Of a stretch of 64,000 nt of DNA, positions 24,601 through 63,749 are shown in pieces. The DNA is from Perna viridis (Eukaryota). A model generated the notes under the pieces. That model saw only the letters and a program-made list of their open reading frames with translations, did not search any database and was not told the origin of the DNA. Position numbers and translations under genes: made by a program. Positions within the stretch are counted from its first letter, which is position 1, and the number at the start of each line of letters is the position of its first letter. The stretch lies in the NCBI GenBank assembly GCA_037379345.1, contig CM074511.1, forward strand, positions 13,516,001-13,580,000. The letters are read 5' to 3'.

Positions 24601-25626
24601 TTCTGTAAGGGAGATTGAAACAGTCTTATTTTGTAAAATAAGGTCATGCATATAAACATTTCTTTCTTTTTGATCTTCTGCATTGTAAGAAATTGATTCT
24701 TTGTCATTAGTTTTAACTTCAAGTAGACTGTTTTCTTTCTGATCTGTCTCCATGCACATATCTTCCTGGTGAAGTAAACTAAATTTAACATCCTGTACTG
24801 TATTTACAGACACTTTAGAGAATCCAGTGTTGGATGCATCGCTCTGTAAAATACCAGCCTTACTATTGTCTGAACAAATATTTTCTTGTATCTTGTTTTC
24901 ATCTAATGGGAGCAAACTTTCAACTGATTCACCAGGGTTCATAACAGAATTTGTAACAGAAACAACTGTATTATCTGTAGGAGTTTTCTGACCAATGACT
25001 TCTACCACAGATCCTTCTAAACCTTTAGCACTAATGTCTGAGTGTACTCCCTGGGAGTTTCCAGCAGCATCTGAGATACATGTATCCGTAGATTCGAATA
25101 GATTTTTATCACAAGCACCTAAAGTCAAAGAGGAGTCCAATTCTAATTCAGCTCTAGAAGTGCCAGCAGCAGAAGATGGAAGCATCTCTGCTGGCAGATC
25201 ATTTTCAACAGCAATGTGACAGACTTGCAAAATACTTTCAACACGTTCACCGTGATTAGTTAAAATCAATGATTCACTTCCTGGCACATTGGGTTGTAAC
25301 CTTATGTCTTCCTGTACTTCTGGGATTTCAGATGCATCTAACAAGTGAGACTGTTGAGTACATGTCTCTAACACAGTATGCTGTCCTTGAGTAGAGTCAA
25401 CTACATTTTGTTGAGCAGAATCAACCACACTTAAGCCAGATTCACACTTGCCCTCCCAACTCTCAGTTTCCATAGCTACTGCAAACATTTCTTCCTGGCC
25501 TGTTGACATCATCTGATCTCCCAATGAAGTACAGTTTTGAATGTTGATCAAATTGTTCTGCAGATTGTCTTCATTTAAGATGATCCCTTCCTCTGTCATG
25601 TCTGTAATGTTGTCAAGTGAATCCAT
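12655..25626 (-). CDS. SFMBT1: Scm-like with four MBT domains protein (SFMBT1/2 orthologue; 4x MBT, SLED, SAM), 15 coding exons, about 1236 aa
   Basis: Phase-consistent GT-AG exons: 25626-24420, 23778-23684, 23287-23047, 22842-22754, 21755-21515, 20983-20886, 19955-19697, 19176-19094, 18210-17948, 17486-17446, 17033-16796, 16083-15908, 14983-14616, 13663-13493, 12795-12655 (sum 3711 nt). MBT motifs GMKLEV..YWVASV..IHPIGWC, GMRLEL..LHPVGWA, GMKLEA..IFPVKWC and [66 protein letters not shown]...[10 protein letters not shown]...LKLGPAIKL. Confidence 0.93.
13190..13358 (+). mobile_element. Decayed SINE body and 3' tail in SFMBT intron
   Basis: gcttctgtgaactagca... ending in ttaaaccacaatcaatcaat; resembles common bivalve tRNA-SINE tails as I recall them. 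Confidence 0.45.
13811..13941. repeat. Foldback/MITE-like hairpin in SFMBT intron
   Basis: aaagaatgattgttatac...gaaataacctcaa pairs with ttgaggttatttc...tgtaacagtcattcttt. Confidence 0.6.
18315..18560 (-). mobile_element. Decayed tRNA-derived SINE (bivalve Meta-SINE-like)
   Basis: Minus strand has B-box-like GGTTTGATTCT followed by a body (actaaagactatag...gaataatgtgtctaagtggg...ctgttgcttttggctagttagca) similar to widespread bivalve SINEs as I recall them. Confidence 0.65.
23875..24178. mobile_element. MITE/foldback element with ~75-bp imperfect TIRs
   Basis: ggaaagggtgaata...aaccaaaatatgatcattagtgccaaagaa pairs with ttctttggcacttgtgatcatattttggttattcaccctttcc. Confidence 0.75.
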
Positions 25627-26212
25627 TTTAAGATTAATTTTACCTGTACATCATCTGAAAAGGAAAGATTCATAGTGATCATGGATTCCAATGATTATAT
25701 TCCTGTTAAATCCAGTCATATGTGTAAAAAAAATAAAGTGTCTGATTAAAAAAAAAAATTTCATATTTATTGTGTATATTTAATGGTGGATAAGCTACAA
25801 AAGAATAATTATGAAGTAAGGGTACAGGTAAAATATAAGGAACTACAACCAAAAATTACATGGGCCATTGACAAACATGAAAATCATTTCATAGTAAACT
25901 TCAAACAGAAGAGGTGTGTTCCAACTAAAACTGAAAGCTGAAAGAAAATGTACATATACATGTAAATTCAAGTGGGCTTTTGGGATGACACTAACACTTT
26001 TTTTACCAAGAAGAATATGTGCATGGTCAAAAATGCATTACATCAATCTTGAATTGTAATGGAAAACACAAGCATGGGAAAATGTATTAAAATGTACAAA
26101 TATATACACTGTTTAACAAATCTATTTTGCTTTTAGGAAGCAATTTTTTTTATGTAAAAAATACAAAGAAGTCTTAAAATTGACTTATTATACTGAACAA
26201 CTATGAGAAGTT

Positions 26213-27233
26213 CAGTGCCTGAAATGAGGGCAAGCCAAAATCTGGCCCAAAAATTTATTTTTCAGTTTTTGTTGAAGTGCACTATCTTTAAGGTTAGGCC
26301 TGATTACAATATGTTTTGAGGGTTTGTTTTTATCTCCACCTCCCTGTCTTTTTAAGAAGTTCCAGCCCTCTTTCAGCTTCTCCATGGTCATGCTGGCATT
26401 CAAACAAATTAGAAAATTTCCACTGTCACAACCTAAATAAAACTTCTCAGGCCTAAGACACCTACAAGCCAGATTTTATAAATACTTTCTTGAAAAATTT
26501 AACATCATTTTCTGAAATTCATATGACCTAGAGATGATGTAAGCATGGCAAATATTGAAATGATTTGAATTAAAAGACCTGAATTTTAATCTTCTTCCAC
26601 TGAACCAAATCATAACTTGTGGTCAGAATTGAATATTAAAAGATCCTTTGTAGGCAAATTTGATCTATGTTCTTCCAATTACAGGCAAAACTTCACAAAT
26701 AAGTTTCAAGTAAAAATATAACAAAATGAGGAAGGTACCTACTACCAAAGTTACACAATGTAGAACTGTATATACAATAAAAAACCAAGGAGAACTAGTG
26801 TGGTCTAGTAATGATTGATATATTGTGACCTTTAATTTGATCTGCTATTGCTCAAATTTACATTGTATTTCTATATTGTACTGGTATTAACCAATAATGA
26901 AGGCTGTTACGTATCCAGACTTTGTAAGACAACTCAGCCCTAATGATGTCAGTCAAATTGTATTCTTGGTACATGCATTTTGTAGTTCAGGTCACACTGG
27001 CATGAATTAACCACTTACCTTAAGTTATGTACAATTGTACCTTTGTCACTGAAGTGGCAAAACATAAAAACAACAAAAAATGATTAAGATTTTTTTATCT
27101 TTCTAGGATGAGGGAGTAGTTATCCGAACATTTTTTTTGGGTTAGCAACTTAATGTCTTTTGGCAACTTTTAATCACCCAAATACAAAACTGGTCGCATT
27201 TGGCAAGCGGGTGACCAGCCTTTTCAGGCACTG
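26213..27233. mobile_element. Candidate non-autonomous DNA transposon
   Basis: 12-bp TIR CAGTGCCTGAAA/TTTCAGGCACTG, flanked by AAGTT on both sides (26208-26212 and 27234-27238). Confidence 0.5.
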
Positions 27234-39300: not shown

Positions 39301-42300
39301 ATTAATCCCTTGAACGTCTCTGGAAGTTTTGAATTTACAAACATTACGCAATTAAAGATATTACTTTTGTATGCTTAGAAAAATTTAGTGAAATAAGAGG
39401 AACTTCAGACAACCCAATCAAAATGCTTAAGGTATGGAAAATCGGCACCTTTTCTTGAAACTGTTAATTGTTTTTTTGTATATTGTCTTTATTTGAATGT
39501 CCATCCTTCTGAAATATCCCACCCTCAATATTTAAAGTGGCACATTTTCTTCATGTATTAGTAAAAAAGAAATTGACAAGGATTGGTACTACTTGGTCTT
39601 TGGTAGAATACATTACCACAATTGTTTTTTTTACCCTTAGTTCATACTTTTTTTTATGTTAAATACCAGTAGATTTTCCTTGTATGATTTGACAAAAAAT
39701 TACAAATGTGAAAAAGATTTGTACATGAAGAAGACAGACATGTAATTCTTAAAAGTATCTCAAAGATATATGTTGTCTTGAAATTACAGATTAATCAAAG
39801 CCAATTTAGGTGGTTCATGGCTTTGCTCATTTAAGTAAATGTATGCTAATGTTCTGTCCTGTGCTTGCACTTAAGGTTGTAATTAGATACGTGGCATCAT
39901 TTTAAGTTTCACTGTTTATTTTGTATTATGAACACACATCTCAAGGTCTATGGAAATATTAGTCATATGAAAGCATTTCTATTTATTTTACAGGTATGTT
40001 GTGAGCTTCTTACTGGATTCTACTATTGGATTAATTGTAATCTACATTGGTCTGAAGATAACACAAATTATTGTTAGAAAGTATAAGTGTGAGACACTGA
40101 TATTTGGAGAATATGGTATGTTTAGTGACCTGTTAATGAAAGAAGTTATGCCAGTTTGTTCTTGCTGTTCCTTCCAATTCAACATTTACATTAGTTATTT
40201 GATAAACAAATCTACTCATACATGTGCAGCTATATTAGATGTTTGAAATCTACTCATCTTTAACATAGTGTCATTGAGGAAATGGAAAAGTTAAGAATGA
40301 AAAAGAATGACAGATTACAGTCTGCTAAATTTTGAAAATTTTTTTTCAAAATAAAGAAGTTTGTTTTTTCTCCTCCAGATTTGTGCCTGTTTATAAATCA
40401 TTTTAGTCCTGCTTAGGCCATGGGTCCACTATGGTGTAGCATTTATGCCTATACAAAAATGTACTTGTACTTTATTTATATATATATGTGTGTGAAGTGG
40501 TTTTTATAAATTTTGATTTAGAAAAGTTTTGGGAAGAATCAGTGCTACAGCTAATACATACTGAATATTACATGTCAAAATCTGAATAGCATGCTGTATC
40601 AACCAGAGACTCTTATAACACCCCAAGGGCCACCAGCCCGAGGGGTGATATAGGTCAGGGGTTGATACAGCATGTGATACAGATTTTAATATGTCATATT
40701 CATTATATCATATATTTTAACCGTACTTCAAGTTTAGTCTGTGAATGGGTGTGATATAAGGTATGCGATATTGGTCTAGGTGGTGTAATATAAGGTATGC
40801 GATATAGGTCTAGGTGGTGTGATATAGGGTATGCAATATAGGTCTCTAGGTGTAATATAGGGTATGCAATATAGGTCTCTAGGTGAGATATAAGGTATGG
40901 GATATAGGTCTAGGTAGTGTGGTATAGGGTATGTGATATAGGTCTAGGTGATATGGTTTAGGGTATGCGATATAGGTCTAGGTGGTGTGATATAAGATAT
41001 GTGATATAGGTCTAGGTGATGTGATATAGGGTATGCAATATAGGTCTAGAGGTGTGATATAGGGTATGGGATATAGGTCTCTAAGTGTGATATAGGGTAT
41101 GCAATATAGGGTAGAGGGTATAGGGTTTAAACAAACACTTATAATGCATATACAAAAACATTATATTTTAATCTGAATATATGACATAAGGTGATACCCA
41201 ATTCTGAATGTTTTGTTGGCACTGGTTGTGATCAGTGAAATAGTGTAAACCTATTGAACCTATTAAAATTTAATGTAAACATGACATATTCTTTTGTCCT
41301 GATATCTCTATACTTAATGTGTATAATGTTTTGTCCTGTAAGACTTGGCTCAGACATGTGATTTTTCTATTTTTCAGGGAGTCCACCAAAATGTAATGCT
41401 TTCATAGGACAGTGTGGTTTGTATATACTGGTGATGATAATTGAGAAGATATTAATGACACTGCTGATATTGTTCCATTTCTGGAAAGATGTAAGTATGA
41501 ATTAGCTTGGATGACATCAATGTAATATCATATACAATTCTCTGATTTATTACATTAATCAAAGCATGTATTAAATTCTGGTACAGGTGTCTGATTATTC
41601 ATCAAGAATTCTGCTAAAATCAACATAAATGTCTTTAATTCAGTATTTGTAAATGGTTGTTCTGTGTGATTAAGGATAATACACATTTTTAGCTCACCTA
41701 GCCGAAGGCCAAGTGAGCTATTGCCATTACTTGACGTCCGTCTTTGTTAACAATTTTTCAAAACTCCTCTCCTTTGACCCTATTTGACCAATTGGAACCA
41801 AACTTACTATGAATGTTCCTTGGGGTATTGTGCATAGAACTGAGGTGGGGATTTTCAATCCATTGAAAAACATGGCTGCCGTTACTAAAAATAGAACGTA
41901 GAGGTTGACAGTAGTTTTTCGCATATATCTCCATATTCTTTAAATTTAGCCAAATTCTGACATGGTTAAAATCTTCAGCATGGTGAGGTTTATCCTTGGT
42001 TAAATTTTCATTTTAATCTGTTAACCCCAGTTGGAGTTATTGCCCTTTTTCGACGTTTTTTGCAAATTTTAATGTTATTTCTTTCAAAAATCTTCTCCTC
42101 TGACATTACTTGACCATTTGTAACCAAACTTGGTATGAATGTTCCTTGGGTTATTGTGCATAGAATGGTTGTAGGGATTTTTGATCCGTCGAAAAACATG
42201 GCGGCTGTTACTAAAAATGAAAGATAGGGGTCAGACAGTAGTTTTTTGCATATATCACCATAACCCTTAGGTTTAGCCAAATTCTGACATGGGGGTTAAA

Positions 42301-44286
42301 GTATTCAACATGAGTAGATCTATCTGTGGTGAAATTTTCATTTTAATCTGTTAAGCCATGAAGGAGTTATTGCCCTTTTTTTGGCGTTTTTTTTTTTGCT
42401 ACTTTTGATGTTACTTCTTTCAAAAATCTTTTCCTCTGACACTACTTGACCAATTGGAACCAAACTTAATGAATGTTTCTTGGGTTATTGTGCATAGAAC
42501 TGATGTGGGGATTTTTGATCCGTTGAAAAACATGGCCTTTGTTAAAAATAGAACAAAGGGGTCAGACAGCAGTTTTTCACAGCAAAATTATTTCTATTGC
42601 TGAAATGACCCTTATTATGATAGTTCTACCAAAGTCTTCTTGAGTCAAAATTGTTGGACAACTCTTTGTTAAATTTATTACCCTTGAAAGACGAACTTTA
42701 ACCAGGTGAGTGATTTAGGCTTCTGGGAGCCTCTTGTTTTCAGAAATTATGGATGTGTAAAATCAGACTTTTCACTCACAAACTTGACATGAAGTACTTT
42801 GGACTTCTATATTTTTATGTGTGAATCATCCGATTTTACTATACAATGATAAATTCTGGAAAAAAACCATTGTTTTATCCTATAATGAAATTCCAACAGA
42901 AAAATGGATATCTGAAATACTCAATGTCCTCAGTTTAGCAAATCTGAAGCATTTAGATTATTTTGTTTTTAATTAATTGTTTTTCAGGTGAGAAAGTTCA
43001 TAATGTCACCAGTCAAAGATCCGAGGGTAGAATTAGTCATAGTAATGTTTATAATACCTCTTGTTGTTAATGTAAGTTAAATGTTAGCTATTTTATGTCC
43101 AGACAACAAAATTAGAATTGGGTGCTTATAATTATATTAATATGGGATGACATGATGAAAGTATAAACATGTCCATAATGATACTTTTGAAGATTTAATT
43201 TTCATCGGAAACTACTTTTATGGTTTATTTTCAGTCCCAAAAAAGAATATCGAAATATTTGGCTGTAACAGAATCCACAAAATAAAAAACATTTTGTAAT
43301 ATACAAAGTTAGTAATATACAATGGAGTTAACTACTGGGAAAAAAATTGGTTGTCCATTTGTTGAATGGCCATTACCTGATGAAATGTCAACTTGACATA
43401 ACTTAAGTGTTTTGATTTATGTTTGATAGAAAGTTGATGTCTCTTTGTTAATTGTCCATTTACCTTCCCCAAGAATGTTTATCTGATGATTGTCATTTAA
43501 TCCAGAAAAGGCAACAAATAAATCCTGAAGTTGACTTAATTTCTCACTGTAATTTACAAATTAAAAAAAAATAAGTGTTATGTTATGAACATCTTGAAAG
43601 GATTTTGATTTTAATTCATACCACTTGATGAGTAAGATAAAGATGTTTTTTGGTGTTCACTGCACTTAAAGTAACTTAATCACTGGGTATACATGTACAT
43701 ACATTTTTCTATTAAAATGTATTTTTAGGGAAGATATCTAAATTTATTAACAGTTTTTTTTTTAAATCTCAGTATATTCTATATCTAATACTCTTTTCAT
43801 TTGATAAGATATTGTATTGTGTTGTTATGAATTCTTTTGACTTCAAAGTCAAAATTGAAGCATTTTGGAAAACTTACTGATATATGTATTTTGTCCACTT
43901 ATAGAGATATTAACATGATGTTTTATTGCATGAATATGCCTAAGGGATTTAAGTTAATATTATTATTTTCTGAGAAAACCATACTATCTTTTACAATCTT
44001 TAAAATGATAAGAAATTCAAGAAAACAGGTTTGGAATATATGATTTTGTCTTTTCCAGGCATTTATATTTTGGGTTGTTGACAACTTCCTCAAGTTAAAG
44101 AAAAGAGGCACAAAAACAATATATGTAACAGATAATGACCCTTCAGTTACTTACCATAGGCGATCAGAAAAGGCCAAATCTTACAATAAAATTGAAAGAT
44201 CTGAAGAATCTGATTTACTTGCCTCTACAGATGAAGAAATTGATATCAGACACAGGTCAAGTTCTATGGATCATTTATTATCATGA
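36313..44286 (+). CDS. STIMATE: Store-operated calcium entry regulator STIMATE (TMEM110), 7 exons, 285 aa
   Basis: Phase-consistent exons 36313-36478, 38491-38539, 39000-39095, 39994-40115, 41378-41490, 42988-43071, 44059-44286 (858 nt). Family motifs [91 protein letters not shown]. Confidence 0.95.
40562..40703. repeat. ~140-bp foldback hairpin in STIMATE intron 4
   Basis: tgaatattacatgtcaaaatctg...catgctgtatcaacc pairs with ggttgatacagcatg...cagattttaatatgtcatattca. Confidence 0.75.
40749..41125. repeat. Minisatellite, ~33-34 bp unit, about 11 copies
   Basis: Unit about GTGATATAGGGTATGCGATATAGGTCTAGGTGGT, itself made of two GATATAGG-containing halves. Confidence 0.92.
41686..42738 (+). 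mobile_element. Helitron/HINE-like non-autonomous element with ~330-bp internal repeats
   Basis: Start TTTTTAGCTCACCT..CCGAAGG..AGTGAGCTA hairpin; three repeats starting ~41757, ~42082 and ~42418; end CAGGTGAGTGATTTAGGCTTCTGGGAGCCTCTTGTT. Confidence 0.8.
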
Positions 44287-45749
44287 TGTTACAGGAAGTT
44301 TTAAGAAAGAGAGACAACTCATTGAGATGGTTGATCATGTGATAGATTTGTTTGGTTTTGTCTTAAGATTTGAAGTGAGATATTTTGGTGCTGATGTTTA
44401 TGTATGTAAATGTGTGTAAGAAACCAAACATGACAATTTAAAAGTGCAATGTTGGTAAGTATGCCATGCTTTTGGGCAGAAGTCAGTATTATTGAATTTT
44501 AATATAATTTCTTTTTCCAGAATGCATGTAAAATCATTTGTGTGTTTTAAAATTACAATTTTCTAGAATTGAGAACTATAAATGAAATATTGCTGTAGAA
44601 ACTGATTGGCTATGCTCATCCAATATTCATTATCTTTACTAATTGGATATAAAAAATAACAATTTAAGATTTGAAACCCAACATTGAATGCTGCTTGTAC
44701 TTAGATTTCTAATTTACACTCAGGTTTGTAAACTTAGGATAAAGTCTTTTTTCGAAATTACATGATATTATTTTTGTGTAAACATATGAACTCGCAGTAA
44801 AAACACTTATATAATAAAAATTTGCCTTCAATATGGCTGGCAAAAATCAAAGTACTTACTTGGTTCTCAGGCTTTCATTTTTCTCTATTTAGAGAGTCTT
44901 AAAATTTATATTTACAACATGCATAAAGTAAAAGCAAAAAAAACACATCCCTCTGGGAAAGGCAAAAAGCACCATATCACATTTTGGAATAATGAGAAAG
45001 TAAGAAGAATATATACCTTTCTCATTGAATTATGTAAAAACGTCGTTAGAAGCAAGAAAGTTGGGTTAATTAAGATAATTTAATTTTAACTACTATTGTT
45101 AAGTATATATAGAGGTAACAAAAAGATTCATTTCTAAATAATGTAACAAAATATTTCAGGTATTGATATCATAACAACTAGGACCAACAACCAAACATCA
45201 ACTATCTCTGTGGCTATGAATGATTTAATGAACATTTTAGGGTTAGATATATGAAAGTCCTAGTTGTGATGCTTTTAACTTGCAGTTAGTGTAGATTCAG
45301 TTGAAATACATTGAAGAAGTATAGGATGTTTATTTTCTGTTAAAAAATGAAGGGGTTTGTTTACTTTTGCTGTTTTAACAAGTGTATTTAAAATAAGATA
45401 TTAGAATAAACTTTTTTCAAGTGTTAATCACAGAACTACTTTTTTATGATAGTTATATTAAATTCTTGTTGGGTAATAAAACTAGTTGAAAGTGTACTGT
45501 GTTAGTATTCATAATATAGACTGTATGGTTTTACTTTTAGAGGGTGGTCTTTATAGGATTTCAATTAGAGGAAAGGGAGTATTCTCAAATCAACTTTGTA
45601 AAGCACATGAGATGATTAGTATTTGTTTAGATAACTTGAAAGTTTTGTAGTTGCAATTTACAATCAAATAATATATTTAGAGAGGAAAGTATATATATAG
45701 TTGCTAAAGTAAATTTAGAAGTTATTACAAATAAAGTAACAAGGTTTTA

Positions 45750-46120
45750 AGAGAGTGTCCACGCAAAAACTGGGCACTGGGTGGCACATGACAAATTTTG
45801 TTTTAAATAAATTGTCATTAATGCATCCTTTCTCAAAGTTGAATGTTGGTTTATGATTAACTGCAATGATTAAAGAGAAAAAATTGAATTGAAACCGTCG
45901 AAATTCATTACTCTTTCATTTTGTGCAAAATTTGGTTGCTTTCCTTGGGAACTGTAAAATTATTTCTAAGCCATCCATTAAAGATTAAAATAAATCTTTG
46001 TAATATTGGACATATATATGAATTAAAAATTACATTGGAATAAAAAATTCTGTTGGATAAAATTTACTATGTGCCATCCATGTCATAAAAACTGCCTGGT
46101 TTCTAAATGGACAATCTCTT
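45750..46120. mobile_element. MITE-like element with imperfect TIRs
   Basis: agagagtgtcca...gggtggcacatgacaaattt pairs with aaatttactatgtgccatcca...tggacaatctct. Confidence 0.5.
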
Positions 46121-49100
46121 TGCAACTGATAAAACTTTGCAAATTAGAAATTTATCTTTTATTAACCAAGTAAGTAATACTTCATCTAAACTAAAGTAGG
46201 TTATGAAGTTCTAAAAATTTACATTATGAGTGCAATTAATCATTTTAAATTTTGACTTAATACAGTTGATTTTATTTTAGTTGATTGAAAACATTATTGT
46301 TATATTTATTATAAATTTGATTGATCTTGCTGCTTAACTATGTAGTATATAAACTGTAGTGCTAATCTGCTAGTCTTGAAAATGTAAGGTATGTACTGTT
46401 TTCAATTGTTTGTGAATTGTACTGATTATGTACATTCAGGATATGAAATTGTTTTCTCATTACATCTATTGACAGATTGCCATCCTAAGTGTGTGAGCAC
46501 TCTGGATTATCTGTTCTTAAAATAATCTACTTAATATGCATTCATTGCTCTACTACATACAATGTATAAATGATAATACAAGTCATCTTGAATTTATCTT
46601 TCAAGGATATACGAAAAAAATCATTCTTTATTCTCATATTGTGTAGAATTTATCATAAAGATGCATATTTGAATGCAGCTTTTAAATTTGAAAAGAGGTT
46701 ACTGATCACCAATCAAGAAATATTTGGTGTTCATTTACAAGTTATTTCTCTTGACATTTATTAAAGATATATATTTGATCAACTTATTGATTTATTTAAA
46801 ATTTGGTAATTATGATGTGAAAAAAATTGTACATTTGTTTTTGTAGATGCTAAGTTATGAGCTCAGAGTTAGTATTTTGCTGAATTTATTTTAGTGGTTC
46901 TAGAGAAAATAAAAGTATGTCAAAATTAACATCCCATGAAAATAACCTGCTGTACATTACCATCAAAGCTGGCCATTATGGTAGAAGTGTTAAATATTGT
47001 ATACATGGTGCTACTGAAAAACTTGCTGTTAACATGATTGAATGAAAATGTGACCAGAAATGTTGTAGATCACATGTCTTTAAATGATCACATGATATAA
47101 GTTCACTCGTTTTTTAATACAGATATACGGAAATCTTGACTACCATATATGAATAAAAAGCAATTTGGAACAATGACAACCCAATTTGTACTTGACTGCA
47201 TTTGTCAGAGGCACCAAATCTCTTTTCAACTTCTCTTTCTTTCCGAATACATTAATTAAACTGTTCAACTATACAATATAGAAAATTATTATTACATGCC
47301 AAATAAGTGATCTGAAAAATACATTTATTTGTTTAAGTTTTTTTAATGAAAAAAAAGTCAAGTGTTCACTTTAGAGATGCCTCCTGTCTTTTTTAAATCT
47401 TGCAGGTGATTTCTATGATGACAATATATGATATAAGACAGTAAATCAAATAGAATGTTTTGCAGAAGTTTTACTTTTTAACCATTGTGTTCATCTTTCT
47501 AGTCTCAGTTAATATCGATTAATTTTATAATTTATCTTATCATTCAATTACATGTACTTAAAAATGTTATATGTGGTCTCCTAGAACAAGGTGTATCCTT
47601 AATTTTCAACAAATCTAGAAACTTAATTTAAAGAAGCTGAAGTTGACTGTCTGATAAGAAAAAAAGATGGTTGTCAATCATTAAAATGTCAATAAAATGA
47701 AATTTCTTACAATTATGGAAAGGCAAGACCTAATTTATTTCATGTTTTATTGGGTATTATTCTGCAAGTATTTCTATGATTAAAAAAAAAGAATTACTGG
47801 TATCTGTAGAAATGTTTGGGATAAATATTGTTCCAATTATTTTTGTAAATGAGTTTTCACTTTCATTTCTAAAGAATTGGAAAGATCGCATAAAACAAAA
47901 AAAATGAAGTGCTGCATTTTTGGTTTAATGTTCTCTTATTTTTATCAATAGCAGTCAACCAAGAAAAAAAATCATATACATTTATGAATACATGTGTTTT
48001 ATTTTATGCTCAACTTTATACATTTAAATATTAATTTGCTGTTTTAATGAATTACTTGCTTTAATATATGCAAAATTGTGGGATATTGAAAGGATCACTT
48101 TCTCAATCATATTTGAAACTTAAGTATGCAGGACTCAGCTGTTGTTTTTTTTTAATTATAAATTCTAAAATGTGATGAATGAATGTTGGATTTTTTTATT
48201 CATAACATATTTATTTTACAACGAATATTCATTTATGTCATGGAGGTCAGTTCATTTATACACATTGCCGATATTTTTTTTTAAAGAAGTGTTGGATGTT
48301 CTCTTAGCATTCAAAGGCATAGGCATTTTCAATCGTGCTAAGTAAAAGGTTTATTAAGAATCAGTATGGATATAAGCAAAATGAGATACGTGATGCTTTT
48401 AGAGCTTTGTTGTGTAAAAAATCAAAACTAAGGGAATTTTCATTGAATTAAGTCAGTAAAATGATGGAGCTTCTATTTATATCCTCTTTTAAAATCATTG
48501 TGATAAAGTTGATTCACACAGCCAAATAAATACTACATCTGTCTGTGACTCTTTTCAGTACATGTATTTAATTTTGCACTTATTTATTCATTAAAAAAAT
48601 TCATAAATTGTAGCTTGAAATCTACAGTCAGTATATGTAGCATGTTTGAAAAGGATCAAAATTAGATGTTGATGTAATGAATTAGCTACATATTGTTAAT
48701 AAAATTATAGTGTACTTGGACGAATTGTCTTCAGCATAGGAATTTGTGCAGACTGTTGTTGAATGTCTGAGCAGAGAACAGGGTTGGAATTACATCAATC
48801 AAATCAAAAGCAAATCTTGCCTCTCTCCCGGTTTTGTGTTTTGTTGCTCACACAAAATCAAGAGTGATGTGAGATCAGCTTTAAATTCCATTTGAATGCC
48901 ACAGATTTGATTTATATACATGTATGTGGAGCCACACAAATTATATTGAGGTACAAAGATCTCCTATGATAGTATATATAATTACAAACATTATTTACAA
49001 TTTAATTATTATATTGGATAAATTGAATACAGTTATCCAAAATATTTGCATTCAATTCTTACCTATCAAGCACATGCTTTGACAATCGAATACTCGAAAG

Positions 49101-49941
49101 TGTGTAATGTTTATATTGCTTTTTTGTAGTGGTCAGTTTATATTATTTGATGAGTAACATGATTTAATTGCCAAAATTTAGTTAAAATATTTATGTTTGT
49201 ATTACACTGTTTAATTTTTACACTTGGCTTTATGTGTTCAATTTTATGTACGTGAATCAGTTTTAAATCTCACCATTTTGTTTTGCCTTGACTCAAAGCC
49301 GCAAACTAGCCCAAGCATAAAAAAGAAATCAATTAAAAAAAAAAAGAAAGGAAGAAAAGAGGTTAATATTTTTTTTCTCTGAAGACTAACGGCTTTAAAG
49401 ATCATAACTTAGTTAGAATTTAAGATCTGAGAATCATTGTACACTTGGCAATCGCTTAGTTTGCTAGTTATTCACTATTATTTATACGTTTGACAAAAAC
49501 TGTTAATAACTTGTCTTAATTTACGAATGTAATATTACAAGAAATTTCTTCCCCATATGGACACGTTTAATGATTTTGAACATGGACTGAATTGTGTGTT
49601 TTGTTACATTTTTCATATGTAAGCTTACTATGTTATAAAATGCCAAAACTTAATTTTGATAATAAAATATATCAAAATGCATTATTCTGTATGATTTTAT
49701 TTGACATGTTTCAATATAATCCAAAAAAATTTTCATATTCTTATTTATTATTCTCGTCAACAATAATTCATAACTACGTTTTAACGTCCTTGACTACTCT
49801 TTCGAATTTCAACTTGATACATAACATAGGCGTTTGATCATGCACCTTATATGGGAACGTTACAGAAAAAAATGACGATGAGGTTACAACACATTCCTCT
49901 ACCCTGATCGAGGCATACAATCAGAAAAATACATTGTTGTA

Positions 49942-51470: not shown

Positions 51471-51954
51471 AAAACAAAAAAATAGCAATATTGAAACTAG
51501 ATATTCAAATTCAGACTTTTAAATTTTAAACTTTTAAGTGAATAACTCAAAACTGTAACTAATTTGTTTTGAACTTGACATTGGAAATCCTACCGCTGAT
51601 AGTTATTTTTCCTCAATTATCCATATTTGATTTCTAAACAATAATTACTGTTCGAGTAAAATTTCATTGTAGACTTTGTAAAAATACAGCGTGACTCGCC
51701 TTTTAAATATTTAAAGTTTGAAATGTATTTATCAAATTAAAAGAACGAGATTTTTTCTTGTTGACGTTTGCTAATTTTACACGGAAACTTTCTAAAGCAA
51801 GTATATCTAGGTAAGAGTTGTTTTCGAACATTCATAATTTAATTTGCTTTTATTTGCCTTTTCCATGTTTCATAACCATTTTCTATCAATTCCATTTCAA
51901 GATGTAGTTGATATCTGAAATATGTAATTCTCACCTATTTCAATTTAGAAGCAT

Positions 51955-53110: not shown

Positions 53111-53568
53111 TAGTTTACAGCTACATAAGAAAAGTCTGTATTTTCGTTATGGGACTTCGAAAGAAAATCCAGTTGGCTTGTCAATATGTTTTATTATACA
53201 GAAACAAAGAAACAAACGATCTATTATACAGTCGCAGTGTTGCTCTTCTACAAATAAAAGTCGTACATGTAACCGTATAGAATATTGTCAGTCTTTGAGA
53301 AATGATAATAAAACCGATACTTTTATTTGTTGATAGATATTCATCAAATGTTTATCAAACTCACACGACAAAAAGTCTTCCATACTTAAATTTGGAACAA
53401 TCAAATAATGTGAGCTCAAGGAAATAGAAAGAGATGATTTGATTCACAGTAACACTGGCATACACACATCATAGAAATAAATCATGAAAGCAAACGTTAA
53501 GTTGTTAATTTTTGCAGCAATCAAACAGCAAAGAAACTTCAACACACATTCCAAAAGAATGTTAAACC

Positions 53569-56500
53569 ATGGTTAAGCTAAGAGTTGTGATTACAACGCT
53601 ATATGTCTTTCTTGGCTATCATCTTGAAAGTAAGTATACATATGTGATGATTATTAAATGGAATTTCAAGGAATATTTTATATTACATGTTTTATAAATT
53701 TCATTTATATTAATACAAAAGCCGTACGGGAATGTGATTTAAAATTATTCAAAAGTCACTGATAACTTTTACGAAAATATAAAGCGGAGCAGCAGAAAAC
53801 TTTTCAAATTCAGCCGCAGAACTTTAATTTCTAGCAAAAATTACAATGCATGTTTTCTCACCTGTATTTTCTCATAAATTAATGCACTTTTAAGTATTGT
53901 AAACCTTTTTTTGCGGATACCCTTTTTTCGCGTTTCAGGATATAAGTAAATTCAATTTTGATATAATTCATTTTCGCGACGAACACACTCTCACATTTTC
54001 CAAACGGTGGGACTCTTTTGCATCGATTTCATATTGCAATATTTTCTTGCTAGGAAAATGAATGGAATAATTTTTTTTACATAATAAAATAAATTGATTA
54101 AATACAAAGGTTCTATTGATGGTATAACAATAGGAAAATGTTAAAAAGGGTAGGACATTTTTCGGGCAGCTTATGTAAGCTATTTGATTTTTAATGGTAT
54201 GAAATCCAATCTGATGAATGCAATAATACAGACAATAGCTGTTTTTTATCAAATGTTTTCTTTTGAATAAAAATTAGATGCTGTAGGATTGGACCGAGTT
54301 TGTACAAACGACATAACCTGTATATATCCAGGTTCCTTGGCAAAAGGTACATCGTTTTAGATATTCATCAAAACCTGCAAGAAATAATACATTTAAAAAC
54401 ATGTAATCATATTATCAAAGAAAACCATTAAGAAAGATATAAATTTACTGAAAAGCGGATAATCACATATACAAAAGTACTCTGACTTACAATTCAGTAA
54501 ATATGTCTAAATCTAAAACAAATAAGACACATAAAAACAATATTTATGTGTCCATATGTACAGCAATAAATTTGAATTTTTCCAGCCTGCTTTTGTGGAT
54601 GCCCAATCGCTACTGTTAACAGAGATTTCCTGAAAGTAAATTTTACGGCATGTGCAGATGTATTGAGGGAATGTCCTTTCTATGAACTTTGGTTGCATAT
54701 TCAGTTTCTGAACGAGGAAGGAGAATACATATCATCCAACAATATCTATCTGAAAGACACCCTCAATAAAACCTACCAGGTTTGAATATTCTGAAGAATC
54801 ATGATTTGATTGATTACCGTTAAAGCTAAAGTTTTCTATTAAAATAAAATAAACATTACAAGACGATGAAAGTAATGGTTCCTTATTATCAGAAACTTTC
54901 TACATATATTACATGTTTTGCATACGATTAACAAACGATTTTTTAATTTATGTTAATGTGGTAAATTAGTAAATAAAAAAACCCCATATTTTTAGATCAC
55001 CTGGTCAAAGGCTATGTGAGCTATTGCCATCACTTGGCGTCCGTCGTCGTCGTCGTCGTTAACAATTATACAAAACTCTTCTCCCCTGAAACTACTTGAC
55101 TGATTAGAACTTAACTTGGTATAAATGGTTTCTGGGGGTATCATGCATAGAACTGATGTGGGGATTTTGGATTCGTTGAAAAAACATTGCAGCCGTTACT
55201 AAAAATAGAACAGAGGGGTCAGACAGTAGTTTTTCACATATATCTCCAAAACCGTTAGGTTTAACTAAATTCTGACATGATTAAAAGTGTTCAGCATGAT
55301 AAGATCTATCTCGGGTCAAATTTTGGTTTTAATCCGTTAAGCCATGTTGGAGTTATTGCCCTTTTTCAACGATTCTTGCTATTTTTAATGATATTTCTTT
55401 CAAAAATCCTCTCCTCTGACATTATTTGATTAATTGGAAGCAAACATGATACGAATGTTCCATGGTATATCCTGCATAGAACTGATGTGGGTATTTTTGA
55501 CCTGTCAAAAACATGACAGCCGTTACTTAAAATAGAACATACAGTGTAGGGGTCAGACAGTATTTTTTTGCATATATCTCCAAAATCGTTAGGTTTAGCC
55601 AAATTCTTTCAATAGCTGAAATGATCCTTATTATAAGGACTACAAAAGTCTTCAGGGATAAAATTTGTCAGATGAGGTCTCACTAACCACTTCTAAAGTT
55701 TCTATTACTTTACATGTTAAAAAAAATAATTTTCAATGTTTCACTGTGAATTCTTAAGACAAATGACACCTGAAAGTTGCATACCATTGCGAAGCTTGGA
55801 AAAGAAGGCTTCCAAAATCATTATTCTAATGGTATGATGACCTTAGAAATTCTTCAAAAAAAATTACTTTTTTTAACTGACAGCATGGAGGCAAATCACT
55901 CACACATGTAAACAAAATTGTTGGACAACTTCTTGTTAAATTTATCGCCTTTGAAAGGCAATATTCAAACAGGCGGACGATTCAGACTCCTGGAAAACAA
56001 ATGTTGGTTTCAAACATTAAATAATTCTTACATGCATCTGATGGTATATTGTTTGTTTAGATTTTTTCGCTGTCTGAAGTGACCAATAAATTTTCCGCTG
56101 ATGATCCATTGTATACACACCAGCACGGCCTACAATTGGCATTTGAAAAGAAATATACAGTTTTAGTAAGTAAAAAAAAAATTATATTCTGAATTGAATA
56201 AAACAAACTATGATCAATGTTGTTATTGTATTGAAATAAATCAAAATAATAAAAAAAAAATAGTAATTCAATTTGAAAAGACTTTTACATCAGTGTTTTA
56301 ATTATCAGGGATATGCTTTTAGAATAAAGAAAGGAATATATATTTTTACCAATGTCTTTGGTTTTGAAAGGTAATCAATAACAATCGTTAACTGTCGACA
56401 AAATAATAACATGTTTTAGATCCACTTTTTTATTTTTATTACTGATGTCACGGGATCTTAATTTTCTATATACATCTTAAAGGGGACTTAAGTACTTATC

Positions 56501-59343
56501 TAAGAATCTTTCATATGACTGATTGAAATGATACGTTTTGATTAATAAAGGGCACGTACTTAACACTAAGTTAATTCCATTGCAGTACATTTTATAATTA
56601 AAAAAATTAATTGTTACAAATATGTCATTATCATTTATAGCATGTATTTTGACGTCACATGAAATCACATGTTCCACGCAGCGGCGGACGTTTGTTTCTC
56701 TCTTACTAACCGCTGTAGACAGGCCTTTCGAAATTCTCGGGCATTATTCAAATCATATGTCGTTTGTCATTCGGAAAACGTCGCGTAAAATCATTCGCTT
56801 TTTCCCCGACTTTCCAAGATTTTTGCATTTTCTGAGAAAGCTGGCGGCAGGTCTACAATGAATTTCGAACGTTCGAAGCTGTTGGGAGCTTGATAAAATC
56901 TACGTTGAGTGTCTAACGCAGGGATAACTTGATATTACATTTTAAAGTTAATATATATCTTCATTAAGAAAACGTTCAATTGTAAATCACGTTTAAGCCA
57001 AAATTGTATTATTTTATGAAGACTAAAAGTTTGAAGCATACGTTGCTGTACTTTTTAAAATTTAAAGATTTTTTAATATTAGAATTTCATTTTATAATAT
57101 TAAAAATTCATTTTCTAATATTACAAATGCCTGCTTTAGTAATGTTATAAAATATCACACATTTTGTAATATTACAAATTGATTTTGTAATATTAGAAAA
57201 TGAATTTGTAATTTGTAAGAAAATCAGTCACATTTTTTTAATATTACAAAATGATTTTCTAATATTAAAAAATCGCAACTGTTTACGACAAATCCATTTT
57301 CAAATATTAGAAAATCAATTTCTTATATTAAAAAATCTTTTTTTTAATATTAGAAATTCAATTGAATTTTTAATATGAAAAAAAGTGTTTTGTGATATTA
57401 GAAATTTAATTTGTGATATTCGAAAATGAATTTGTAATATTAAAAAATCTTTTTTTTAAATATTAAAAAACACTTATTTTCTAATATTACAAATTCATTT
57501 TCTAATTTTACTAAAAATATCATCACTGATGCCAAGAACACTAGGCGTTTTTCGGCGCTCGTTATAATATTGTGGTTAATTTACTACTTTCAATTAATTA
57601 CACTATTACAATTTCAGACGCTGTGACATGACAATCGATTAAGAATATGTTACACTTTTTATTCTTTTATGAAATCCATATTTCATTTTGCCAAAGTCGG
57701 ATGTGAAGTCGTAATAAAATAACAATTTATCTGATAAACCAATCTCACGGGTTCTTCCACTGGTTTCCTTCTTTTCTACGATATACACTACAAGTTTGAA
57801 TACAGAAATTGTATTTGGTTAGTAGTGTGGTAGAGGTGTAAACCTCGCACAGTAAAAAGTATAGAATATCATTTTTGGTATGTATGTGGCTTCGGAATAT
57901 ATTACATCATACTTCCCATATGCATTTTGCACGGGTATTATTTTGATTTGAGATGACGCTAAAGACATTATATATTTTCGACAAACATGAACAATGCAAT
58001 TTGAATAATATTGTTTCTTAATTAAAGGTACCCTTAAGTATCGATTGACAGCGCATTATAATAAAATAACACTATAACAATAAAGTTAGAAAAAGATAGC
58101 ACTAATTGATACTTTTACCTGTTTCAATGCACACTTTTTGAAGAAAATATTGTTTTAAATGACTTAAAGCACTGTTCTCCTGTTTTACTTTTTAATGAAA
58201 CCCACTGATATATTTACACATATTTACAACAGCCGATCAAATAAAGACGTGACGCTGCAAATCGATCTGACGAATCTGCCCATGTGCAAATTTTTGACAT
58301 TTCTGAATAAAACCCGTCGATATATATACACAGATCGTACTACATAGGGCCACAAAAACCGGGTAATAAGGTGGTAAACAAACTTCTATGTTGAATTTTA
58401 TTTGCGTTTTAATAGCTTTGTCAACATTTTTAAAAACATAAATCATGCCTGTGCTTTTGTAAGCGAGACCTTCTTATCAGCAGAAAAAAATATAAATAAA
58501 ATGCTGGTACCTCCGCGATACACTCTTTCCATGTCGATAAGAAGATCTGAACAATAGTTATGCAAGATAAAGGGGGTATAAAATGGTGGTCATAATCTCC
58601 ATATTTTTGACTGGATTTTCATCAAACAGTCTTTGAATCACATATATTGAATTATTGTAAATAGTTTACTTGTAACGGTAATAATAAAAAATGTCAAATT
58701 CATATTTCAGATTCAACCGCATTGTACAATATGTGACGAGTCGTGCAACTTCATGGAAGATACCGGTGTGTATATAATATAACAGTTCCTTCATTACATG
58801 ATACATATGTTTTGAAATGCTCTTACCTATGCATTTATTGTAGTATGGGCCCAAAAACATTATTAAAACCAACCAAAAAGTTAACAGTTGCATTTGTATT
58901 TTTACAGACAATCGAAAGTATGCTTTTGGTTAGTTGTCAAAGAGTAATCAAGGGAACCAAGACTCAAACAACACATGCAATAAAAAGGTCTTTATACGTT
59001 GAAAATCAATAATTGCAAATAGTCCTATATATTAATCAGATGCTGACTTAAATATTGACAAAGTAACATGATTCTTTACAAACCTTTTACAGAAATACCT
59101 GCAGTGAAATATAAGGAGCTAACCCAGAACATTGATCCCACTGGAAGCAAATACCCTTTGATTTTCATATTAACAGTTTGTTTTGTGTTGGCCTTATCAG
59201 TATTAGGACTATTTTCCTGCAGAAGGAGGAGGATGAAAAGATCCAGTGAACCTCACATTTGTAAAGAGCTACATCCAATTAACGTGAATAGAGATATTCT
59301 GACCCTAACGAACGTTACTATAAACAGCACACATGAAGTCTAA
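53569..59343 (+). CDS. Uncharacterised Cys-rich single-pass type I membrane protein, 6 exons, 244 aa
   Basis: Phase-consistent GT-AG exons 53569-53629, 54278-54346, 54586-54779, 56061-56165, 58711-58765, 59093-59343 (735 nt, open throughout). Signal-peptide-like N-terminus MVKLRVVITTLYVFLGYHLENAVG, 10-Cys ectodomain, TM LIFILTVCFVLALSVLGLFSC, stop-transfer RRRR. Confidence 0.75.
54989..55995 (+). mobile_element. Helitron/HINE-like element, same family as 41686-42738
   Basis: TTTTTAGATCACCTGGTCAAAGG..TGTGAGCTATTGCC, (GTC)n microsatellite, two ~330-bp repeats and a decayed end caggcggacgattcagactcctgg. Confidence 0.78.
57068..57510. repeat. AT-rich array of ~21-bp units with palindromic TAATATTA cores
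   Basis: Repeated ttt.taatatta.aaa units; probably the interior of a foldback DNA element. Confidence 0.75.
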
Positions 59344-60675
59344 AAACTCTACATTTGTTCATGGAATACCCTTTAGCCACTAAAGACACTAATGGTTTTT
59401 TTTTAATAGAACAAGAATAAAGGTAGCAAATTAAGAGCATTGTTCTATCATGTGTATCAGATGCTTAAAGAAAATTTAATAGTTTGTTCTTATCAAGTTT
59501 ACAGTGTGACGTTATCCAATTGACATTAGGCTTTGTTTTATTTCGTGGGACATATTTTTATTCCTTGGAAAAGAGTATTACTATTTTTTTTTCTGTGAGA
59601 TAGAACTATGATATCTGTTTATCTTAAGAGCTAAACTGAGACCAGGGTATCCAATTACATACGAAACAAAATAACTTATACATTGTACTTTTCTAAATGT
59701 CGTTCAATGTGTTTTTCTCTTTTTCTGATCCGGGTAATATCAAGGACAAGGAAGTTCTACAGATAACTAAAAGGAAATAATGATCGAACTGAATAATAAA
59801 AATCCTTTTGATTAGCTTGGCGGCTCCACAAATCAGTTTACAAATCAACATTATGTTTAAGACTGAAAATAAAATCAAGAAGAGAGAAACACAACATTGT
59901 CAACAAGATGTTGTCCTGGTGGGTATTGTCACTCCAACACGAGTTCTTGATTTCGACCGTACTCTTTTAGTAACAAGTCTATACATGTGAAAACATCTCA
60001 ATGTTCCAATGGATCATTTGTGTAAGATGTTCAGTATTGCACAAAATACAGGTGGCTTCGACATGCCATAATCTAAAATATTAATTTTTGTGTAGATGGA
60101 TAATCATTTGTCTATTGATTTTTATCGTTTTGTCGAAGTAAGAATTCAAAATGTTATGTTCGAAGATAGGTAGTCAATACTAGTGTCACACTAATAATTA
60201 ATTAATTAAATCTAAACTACCAGTCGTTTTTTTTTTCTACAAAATAATGCCTTATATACTGGATTAAGTTGATAACAAACGGGATTATCGAAAATGTGCA
60301 CATATTTACAATGGAATCACTGGGTTTTTTGTTCCATTTGAAGAAGAAAAAACCTGTTTGAAGAAAAAGGCTTATTTCTATTCTTACGAATGGAATGAAA
60401 CACTTGGCTTATCGAATGAACAGAATTTACTGTCACAAAAAAAGGAATGATTTAGAATTTGGCAGTTTTAAGCAATACCATACGTAATTTTATGTACCAA
60501 ATAATACCAGATTATAGTTATCATTTTATAACTTTAGATGTAGTTCTTGATTTTTGTTTGCGTTGATCCACAATGAAGACAATGTATATTGTCCACCCCC
60601 CAATTTTTGGCATACACTTGTTTCAACATAGTAGGAATATAAAGAAAGTTTGACAATGGAATACCATTAGATAGT

Positions 60676-60940: not shown

Positions 60941-62361
60941 TATCAACAAAATTATGGAACACTAATCTGATTCATAATCAAGATTAGTCCGAAATATATC
61001 TTGCAAAATAGATATTACACCACCGGAACAGCTGGTACCGCAATGGTCCAGGTACAGGCACTTCAGACGAAATAAAATTAGACACTACAGAAATAACGTA
61101 CAATTTACCACCAATTTTGCTAGTCTGATTTTGTTTCTATTCGAGAGATAAGATGTGTAATTAATTATGATCGCTTTCACCGGTATATCAAACTTAGTAT
61201 TATCAGTTCACATGCAAATCAGTTCACATATACAATCAACATCACATGCTTCTATTTTTATTCAGAACTTATTGTTTATTTCTTTTACTTTAACAATAAA
61301 TGGATACGGGGAAACTGTTTAAGAATGATGTTGTATTTGTTATATTAGAACTGTTTCAACCATCCCACCAGGAGTTCAATTCATACATCTTAAATCATTA
61401 TTTCATTAAACTTTATAGTTAAGAACACCAATAAACTGGTCATACACATCAAAGTCGATGAAAGAGATTATTACAAACCTAAACAACACATTTACATACC
61501 CCTTAACCTTTGAACAACAAGTCACTTATAATATTAACTTCGAATTACAGAGAAGCTTTTTTAGGTTGATGTCCACAAATCGAGTGTTCAATTATCACAT
61601 ATAAACCTTCTCCGTTGACAACATTGAGTGGATTGCAACAAATTTGATCATAAGTATTACTTTTTGATTTTTTTCGATTATTCTGACGCGACAACAAACA
61701 TAATACCAGTCTTTATCATTGCAAATTGAAGTCAGTTACAGTTTCCCAAATTAAAAACAACTCAATTATTAATGAGGTAACAGTAAACTTGCAAAATCTA
61801 AAAACAATTTTCCTAAAATAACATATAATTGACATACGAGTACCCCATATCAAAGTCTATGCAAATGGCAAAGATAGTCGATATACTTGAATGTGAAATG
61901 GAAAAGTAGATCCAAATATATCTTTTCCATGCTCATATTTTATATCTGTTCTAACCAAACAATCAGAATAGCCGGTAGTAAGACAGTTCTAAAGGTTGCA
62001 TAGAACAGAAACCAACTCTTCTGACAGTACTGCCAGAGCCGGTCGAAAACTGTTCCCGTATATTCAACTCTACGAGAACTGCCCAACAAAATGATGAACT
62101 GTACGATCGTTTGTACCACAATATCCGTATAACTAACTTGTTTCACACTTTATCAATTTGTTGTAACAATTTACAAAACAAATTCGTTTATTTGTAATAA
62201 CAATTAGCTGACTTGTTATTCACATACAACTAACTTGTTGAATAAGCGATTTGGAGAGTTCAAGGAAAATTTAATTAACATAATCAATACTTGAATTTTA
62301 GTTTTCTTTAAAAGGAACAGTAAGACATTTTTTATCTAATAAAACTGACGCTTAAACTGTG

Positions 62362-63255
62362 ATGAAGATGAAACTTGCCGTTGCAATTTTAATGATAGAA
62401 AATATGAAGTTGTTTATAATAGGACTGAAAAGAGAGAACTTCTATTCAGTAAACACCAATGTCAAGTTATCACAGATGGAAACATATTCAAAGGGGTCTA
62501 TGTCCTTATTAGCATGTACAGGCAAATGTTTATCGTTAGAAGAAAAATGCTGCGAAGTGACATACAACGAATTCACTAATGAGTGCAGGATTGGAAACAA
62601 CAGCTGCTGCAATTATTCCACAGAATTTTCTTATGGATCGTTTGTCTTAGAAAGGGTCAGAATATTCAGAGGTAAGTAGATGGATTATAGAGTGTTTTCT
62701 TTACTTAAAATTGAACTTCTTGTCAAACAAACCTTCACTTGTGGACGTTCCCTTCAGTTCATGCTTCACCTGATTTGGCAGCCTTCATTTAAAAAAAATA
62801 AGTTTACAGAATTATTTTTTGTTATCAAGCAACTTCGATAATCCAGAAACTGATAATACAAATATGAAAAAAGGTCTACATCGACATCAACTACTTAAAT
62901 TAAAAAACCCAAAGTATTCAAAATGAAATGTAAGAATTCTTTAACCAGATAAAGTAAAGCTATTGAAAATTAAAATAAGAAACCATAGATACAATATAAT
63001 ACAAAACATAGATACAATATAATAAAAAAGTATCAGAAAATTCGATCCATTAAAATTCAAACATTTGAGAATTATATATTCGTGGCAATTATATTCCAAC
63101 GAAATGAAGATACCTGGTGGATACGTATATGAATACATGTATTTATTCAAGATTCGGTACAACCTTTGGTTGTTTCAAATGGTATAAATCTTGGAGATTG
63201 GACCGAACCAGAGTACTGCACTAAAGGGCAGTATGCCATAGGATATAAAATATGG
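62362..63255 (+). CDS. PAN/apple-like domain + vitelline membrane outer layer protein 1 (VMO1)-like domain protein; first two exons, 3' part beyond the window
   Basis: Exon 62362-62671 (SLLACTGKCLSLEEKCCEVTYNEFTNECRI, a CxxxC...C..Y....C pattern) splices in phase 1 to 63152-63255: DSVQPLVVSNGINLGDWTEPEYCTKGQYAIGYKIW, matching the VMO-I start (V.NG..WG.W...E.C..G.FA.GF). Both donors are GTAAGT. Confidence 0.75.
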
Positions 63256-63749
63256 GTAAGTTTCAAGATTGTTTTGAATTAATGGTTAGAATATTTGATA
63301 GAAACAACTTAGTGTAATTTAAGCTATATCCAAAAATATATTATTTGAAATGGAGAATATTGTACAATAACGATGATGCATTAATCATTTCATAAATATT
63401 GAAATATTTGTTTATTACCGTTGATACAAATAGTCAGAAACGGAATTGTCTTCCCTTCAGTGATAGAAAACACAAACCACAGCTAATAAAGACTCACAAT
63501 AAAACAATTGTTCAATAAAATGTTACATCGGTTTTTGTTTAAAAACTTCTCCTGGTAACAACCCCCTCATCATTGTGTATAATACAAACAATCTGTAAAG
63601 GGAATTATATACTCATGATTAAGTGGATAGCCGCACGTCAACACCGCTGCGACGTGTAATTTATTATAACATATAATACATAATATATTCCAAATGAAAC
63701 ACTTAGCCACATACGGTTAAAAAACATACAAAATTTTATCGAACCGATC

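Follow-up and report, generated by a model that had tools for sequence, protein, structure and literature searches.

A spliced single-FnIII receptor gene without a SEFIR domain in Perna viridis, likely derived from an interleukin-17 receptor

The DNA analysed here (the window) is a stretch of 64,000 nucleotides (nt) of Perna viridis, corresponding to contig C1:13516001-13580000 and with window positions counted from its first letter. Its plus strand carries a gene of six coding exons (53569-59343), which splice into an open frame for a protein of 244 amino acids (aa). This protein matches the one that an earlier note had assembled from the letters alone. The in-phase coding exons proposed there were reproduced, with GT..AG borders at five of five introns (phases 1, 1, 0, 0, and 1), a GC content of 38% in exons vs. 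29% in introns, and spliced contigs from five studies; a seventh, non-coding exon at the 5′ end had been missed. The gene is real, expressed, and spliced, and comprises seven exons including the 5′ non-coding one (Table 1).

A single contig of 1627-1684 nt per run covers the exons and skips the introns in four of four runs, each from a different study, and a fifth study yields another spliced contig of the gene. The seven exons up to position 60169 total 1684 nt, which is the length of two of these contigs. The sequencing runs were classed as RNA by guess only, none being recorded as such, and a DNA-like run is unbroken across an intron that the spliced contigs skip. The junction check put forward in the earlier note could be completed directly for coding junctions 1, 2, and 3 (seen as abutting contig pieces or as a loose end), whereas the 55-nt fifth coding exon and its two junctions follow from the exact gap length between contig pieces. 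All four contigs pass the stop codon and end at 60126-60222, close to the ATTAAA element. Because these contigs read through the stop into the 3′ untranslated region (3′UTR), the main assembled transcript is without a SEFIR exon. Assembled contigs speak for the main form, and rare isoforms may escape them. This agrees with the earlier claim that the protein has no SEFIR domain, as does a search of the surrounding 184 kb, in which no SEFIR-like exon was found (best E 0.34-0.54).

Table 1. Exons of the receptor gene and its tandem copies (window positions, or contig positions where preceded by C1).
Feature	Position	Strand	Remarks
Exon 1, non-coding 5′UTR	51739-51810	+	contig piece 51739-51808 adjoins next exon; donor TAG/gtaaga at 51810; 51739 is a contig end, not a mapped transcription start
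Exon 2 (coding 1)	53518-53629	+	51 nt of 5′UTR, ATG at 53569, coding 53569-53629; predicted signal peptide, residues 1-21
Exon 3 (coding 2)	54278-54346	+	small N-terminal two-Cys segment; phase 1 to 1; both junctions seen
Exon 4 (coding 3)	54586-54779	+	194 nt; phase 1 to 0; CxCxC and first half of predicted FnIII
Exon 5 (coding 4)	56061-56165	+	phase 0 to 0; ends mid predicted strand F
Exon 6 (coding 5)	58711-58765	+	phase 0 to 1; remainder of strand F, CxxC...C loop, strand G; supported by gap length in contigs
Last exon, coding part	59093-59343	+	stalk, transmembrane helix (~59155-59217), basic stop-transfer run, 41-aa tail, TAA
3′UTR	59344-60222	+	~880 nt, contiguous with stop in four of four contigs; ATTAAA at 60205
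Broken copy B	about C1:13588800-13594350	+	five exon remnants with stop codons and a frameshift
Paralogue C	C1:13619912-13625766	+	predicted from sequence; six exons, same phases, 198 aa, ~10-residue tail

An in-frame TAA lies two codons 5′ of the start codon. Moreover, an out-of-frame ATG is situated 10 nt 5′ of the start (window 53559-53576, plus strand), and its 5-codon frame, which overlaps the main ATG, could lower translation.

The gene product is predicted to be a type I membrane glycoprotein bearing a single FnIII domain and lacking any signalling domain. Its hydrophobic N-terminus (called a signal peptide from hydropathy and inspection only), 10 ectodomain Cys, sequons at residues 62 and 104, single hydrophobic transmembrane helix (residues ~183-203, from hydropathy), and 41-aa tail were all found as the earlier note had described them. 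The same note had also read the C-terminal THEV as a PDZ-ligand-like end. Class I PDZ ligands follow the rule of a Ser or Thr at position -2, where THEV has a His, and C-termini are not conserved among the relatives, so that this reading was abandoned.

The gene belongs to a tandem cluster together with a broken copy B and an intact 198-aa paralogue C, both of them downstream, the latter matching the 244-aa protein at E 3e-18. Paralogue C has no CxxC pair but two other Cys, one per domain end, which may pair in its place, and its strand F retains a textbook-like FnIII motif.

The link to interleukin-17 receptors (IL-17R) emerged from the exon structure. Genome-wide, eight SEFIR matches were found, none of them near the cluster, next to at least 23 IL-17 domain matches. 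Six of the SEFIR matches are listed on contig C1, and five of the eight, like the cluster itself, were counted as lying on C1 or at nearby paralogous sites. At five of seven IL-17R-type loci (the remaining two were not reconstructable, and the locus on C8 lies outside this set), domain 2 (D2) of the receptor is encoded by an exon of phase 1-0 (191-206 nt), one of phase 0-0 (48 nt), and one of phase 0-1 (103-115 nt), after which a stalk/transmembrane exon follows. The same phase series is present in the gene studied here (194, 105, and 55 nt) and in paralogue C (191, 66, and 58 nt), with exon 4 corresponding to the first D2 exon and exon 6 aligning with the start of the third. In six of six genes aligned, and under each of three MAFFT modes, the strand-F intron (four residues past the strand-F tyrosine) occupies one and the same column. 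As an intron control, a generic fn3 search was biased, since nearly all of the 150 matches listed (of 151 in total) covered the domain in a single frame. At the profile level, the family ectodomain scored 27.2 against IL-17R D2, above 200 of 200 column shuffles, and in a comparison with generic domains it scored 21.8 against IL-17R D2 vs. 10.8-13.4 against three generic fn3 sets. A hidden Markov model of the family ectodomain found no match in the IL-17R loci searched exon by exon (best E 0.4).

Relatives of the gene were found in Mytilus. A two-sequence exon profile run against 1.84 billion representatives returned four proteins at E<=0.001, the named ones being M. trossulus LOC134707261 (394/417 aa) and LOC134707256 (225 aa), and further searches returned 6 and 11 matches, of which all named ones were from Mytilus and the remainder unnamed assembly products. 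A word-index search with exon 3 alone gave no match, and a sequence search of the PDB gave transmembrane matches only. The unnamed Mytilus homologues (LOC134707261, LOC134707256, LOC143075863, and CAG2233502-4) show 26-37% identity, with E to 1e-33, and have a Cys frame in common with this gene, while the tails vary freely among copies. Two Mytilus paralogue types carry a cytoplasmic tail of ~165 aa in a frame that is open across species, the others being short, and both intact copies in the P. viridis genome are without this domain. The M. edulis records CAG2233502, -503, and -504 have consecutive accessions and are of long, short, and long type, respectively, which suggests the same tandem cluster in M. 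edulis. The alternative offered in the earlier note, a lineage-specific family, is likewise correct, and it holds together with an IL-17R origin.

The LOC143075863 type shares with this gene a PHCT motif and an 11-aa insert, which lies in exon 5 and has the same length and place in both. In the tree, the gene joins this type at 77/80, or at 97/94 when paralogue C is left out; paralogue C alone also joins it, with long branches meeting. Given this ambiguous placement, one-to-one orthology with the Mytilus types is not claimed. Two Mytilus records have exon-sized gaps that match the exon borders of this gene (the X2 record of LOC134707261 is without the two-Cys exon, and CAG2202911 is without the strand E-F exon), reflecting either alternative splicing or annotation slips.

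The long Mytilus tail offers a second link. Its profile aligned with SEFIR over 97 columns in register and above 200 of 200 shuffles, and with a smaller profile the score was reached by 2 of 60 shuffles. When the whole long relative was searched against the ESM Atlas, the ten best family-bearing matches were SEFIR/IL-17R clusters, with a top score of 0.93. Structure models were made of Mytilus relatives and not of the window's own spliced protein, and the tail model (predicted local distance difference test, pLDDT, of 49) has the alternating strand-helix order of TIR/SEFIR domains.

Since the D2-type phases and the mid-strand-F intron are shared with five IL-17R genes of this genome, descent of the gene from an IL-17 receptor gene appears likely. 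The IL-17R origin suspected in the earlier note is thereby supported as likely, by the exon structure here and by the SEFIR-like tail of the Mytilus relatives. Its claim of an IL-17R-like FnIII domain stands for the FnIII domain (predicted from a Mytilus model) and for the D2-type exon structure, but neither Pfam nor the fold searches point to IL-17R in particular. Canonical IL-17R membership fails, as the protein has one FnIII domain and no SEFIR. The history as a whole, which we consider probable, would be that an IL-17R copy lost its domain-1 (D1) exons in a mytilid ancestor and was then duplicated in tandem, after which the SEFIR domain would have drifted in the Mytilus long forms and the tail would have disappeared altogether from some copies, among them both intact ones here. 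Degeneration of the double FN3 and of SEFIR is frequent in IL-17Rs according to the accessible part of PMC11087794, which fits the loss history proposed here.

A frameshift-tolerant profile alignment found no SEFIR remnant in the 3′UTR that scored better than shuffles (14-89 of 100 as high), and the tail loss is therefore old. The first four codons past the stop read KLYI, like the first strand of the cytoplasmic domain of the Mytilus long form, and are a possible remnant of this lost domain; KLYI directly after the stop occurred in 145 of 200,000 random UTR-like sequences, the motif having been chosen post hoc. That the frame is intact next to a sister copy in decay, and that the UTR is unrecognisable, argues for selection acting on the short form.

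The best explanation as a whole, to which we assign a probability of roughly one half, is that the protein is an IL-17R-derived, non-signalling partner that would damp cytokine-receptor complexes rather than act as a stand-alone ligand trap. In human IL-17RA, contact with ligand sites 1 and 2 and the dimer interface are the part of D1, whereas D2 binds site 3 by sequence-independent strand pairing with the C-terminal tail of the ligand (in the accessible text of PMC9637376). A D2-only protein would therefore be expected to trap ligand poorly by itself. Where a full receptor already holds an IL-17-type dimer, the retained D2 might instead occupy the second receptor position on this dimer, with contact made through strand pairing as in IL-17RA D2, and because no SEFIR would be brought along, adaptor recruitment would fall. 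This mechanism of a damping, non-signalling subunit is put forward tentatively, at somewhat less than even odds. A complex prediction for a Mytilus ectodomain and one IL-17 dimer from this genome, made without alignments and with an uncertain partner fold, scored 0.00 and is not counted for or against the proposal.

Several observations weigh against the proposal of an IL-17R-derived damping partner. The first internal intron has the same phase but is 6 columns off in the MAFFT alignments, and the D2 profile match has an HH probability of 34%, with only 10 columns aligned with confidence. First D2 exons of canonical IL-17R genes match the Pfam model Ig_ILCR1; neither this model nor IL17R_fnIII_D2, nor other Pfam models for IL-17R or SEFIR, matched the exons of this gene or any of 11 Mytilus relatives (E<=10). 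The match between tail and SEFIR has a probability of 2.6% (E 0.017) and is lost with whole proteins, and the best fold matches of the tail model are unrelated alpha/beta folds, with the IL-17RA SEFIR at E 0.12. Model confidence is low (mean pLDDT of 47 for the ectodomain-bearing model and 49 for the tail), and the ectodomain alone led in the ESM Atlas at 0.75-0.76 to class I cytokine receptors only. Moreover, D1, bearing two of the three IL-17RA ligand sites, is absent here, and no long family member was found in this genome by a search that scores top candidates only, in a family whose tails diverge fast.

Some of these same observations would suit the main rival, a receptor that is IL-17R-derived but repurposed, whose new Cys-rich N-terminal cap and single FnIII domain would bind another ligand or surface partner, be it for adhesion, for recognition, or to present a ligand. 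D1 has been lost, a Cys pattern peculiar to the family is conserved, its members have become too divergent for Pfam to detect, tails vary freely from copy to copy, and the search of this genome turned up no signalling sibling. However, the two Mytilus types that keep an open-frame tail of ~165 aa indicate that the family is still receptor-like, and no analysis points to another ligand, so that we regard repurposing as unlikely while leaving it a real share of the probability.

The fold of the ectodomain bears on a further alternative, namely that the gene is not IL-17R-derived but encodes a lineage-specific FnIII receptor (of class I/II cytokine-receptor type, or a fragment of a receptor kinase) whose likeness to D2 would be due to chance. 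The model of a long Mytilus relative is a seven-strand sandwich, with pLDDT values in ectodomain blocks mostly between 51 and 82. It contains one beta-sandwich, and the three D1 exons of canonical genes have no counterpart. Of the 15 Foldseek matches at E<=0.001, the leading ones were IL-7R alpha and FnIII domains of further cytokine receptors. VIA-align gave a maximal Z of 7.2-7.8 (none at 8), a range shared with unrelated sandwiches, and many FnIII domains were tied at Z 6-8. No IL-17R chains were among the matches listed in the ectodomain fold searches. The ectodomain is thus predicted to be one FnIII domain whose fold by itself does not point to IL-17R. Although the FnIII domains of class I/II cytokine receptors (IL-7R alpha, LIFR, and IFNGR) are its best fold matches and Pfam is silent, this likeness is generic (Z below 8 and 8-17% identity), and an origin outside IL-17R would have to account for the three-exon series and strand-F intron shared with IL-17R D2, for a profile score to D2 that beats generic fn3, and for the SEFIR-like tail of the long relatives. 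We consider such an origin improbable.

Two specific identities of this kind were rejected. Class I cytokine receptors have a WSxWS motif and a two-domain module, both of which are absent from the protein and its relatives. TAM kinases combine two Ig and two FnIII domains with a kinase domain. The label TYRO3, which one M. edulis record carries, was given by the source of that record; the record is a 229-aa protein with no Pfam family, and no kinase domain is present in it, in the protein studied here, or in the other Mytilus relatives.

The earlier note had raised the possibility of a decoy. The absence of a signalling domain stands, but D1 is missing and no signalling member of the subfamily was found in this genome. 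A classical decoy, binding IL-17 alone with high affinity and sequestering it on the membrane or after shedding, would be in keeping with the short tail, the likely IL-17R origin, the large IL-17 repertoire, and the vertebrate IL-17RE-like protein, which is also without SEFIR (accessible text of PMC11136934). It has little chance of being right, given that D1 holds two of the three ligand sites (PMC9637376, same text) and that another gene in this genome, with both FnIII domains and no detectable SEFIR, fits the role better. Finally, a functionless transcribed gene in decay, cut short by a nonsense change, is hinted at by the broken copy B and by KLYI past the stop, but is hardly credible for a gene whose loss is old, whose 244-codon frame and 10 Cys are all intact, and whose listed coding differences among contigs are just two (one silent, one R to K).

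The other gene is an IL-17R gene of canonical type on C1 at about 64082016-64076000 (minus strand), 50 Mb away and in tandem with two SEFIR-bearing IL-17Rs. As read from its sequence only, it has D1 exons, three D2 exons, and a transmembrane exon, followed by an exon of 72 nt and a Tyr-rich last exon of ~120 codons; no SEFIR match was found for it in the 30 kb around it or in the genome-wide search. If a true decoy for IL-17, or a receptor with alternative signalling, is sought, this gene is the better candidate.

Mussel IL-17R A-F (M. galloprovincialis; accessible part of PMC8353272) and their counterparts here have in common with this gene the type I layout, the D2 exon series, the strand-F intron, the Cys-bearing loop after strand F, and the stalk/transmembrane exon next to it. 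In contrast to these receptors, the protein has a single FnIII domain where they have two, is 244 aa long vs. 566-874 aa, has no SEFIR, and gives no Ig_ILCR1 match. That source retrieved the mussel receptors by SEFIR and by BLAST from known receptors, and describes six, all with SEFIR, next to about 23 IL-17 ligand types (PMC8353272). As a kind, an IL-17R without SEFIR has a precedent in the vertebrate IL-17RE-like gene (IL17REL), likewise an IL-17R relative without SEFIR and one for which the accessible part of PMC11136934 gives no known ligand. IL17REL is related to IL-17RC/E and has a long ectodomain and an unclear transmembrane segment, whereas the protein described here has a clear one and a single D2-like domain; we infer that the two arose independently. 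The literature searched, which covered few subscription papers, gave no description of a tandem family of single-D2 receptors that come in long and short forms.

For the question of how so many IL-17 ligands are sensed and held in check in mussels, this family supplies unannotated long and short candidates that SEFIR-based searches miss. Introns also make it possible to follow here how receptor domains were lost step by step, where sequence likeness is nearly gone. A broader and rather doubtful proposal is that of a hidden mytilid IL-17R branch of paired signalling and non-signalling single-domain receptors, in which this gene would be the membrane brake; if true, this branch and the two-domain SEFIR-less gene would form a regulatory layer on the expanded mussel IL-17 system, invisible to SEFIR-based surveys.

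Upstream of the receptor gene, the window contains four MBT-repeat exons of an SFMBT-like gene (about 14500-26500, minus strand) and a STIMATE exon (39971-44290, plus strand). In the human genome these two genes are neighbours at 3p21, and the same chromosome arm carries IL17RB and IL17RD. Between the receptor gene and copy B lie small Cys-rich exons of another gene (62356-62679 and 63100-63260, plus strand), for which no Pfam match was found with the one exon tested. The stretch from 44600 to 49640, which has no long open reading frame, is covered by several minus-strand contigs of 1-2.6 kb from one run and by shorter pieces from others, and is possibly a long UTR or a non-coding transcript.

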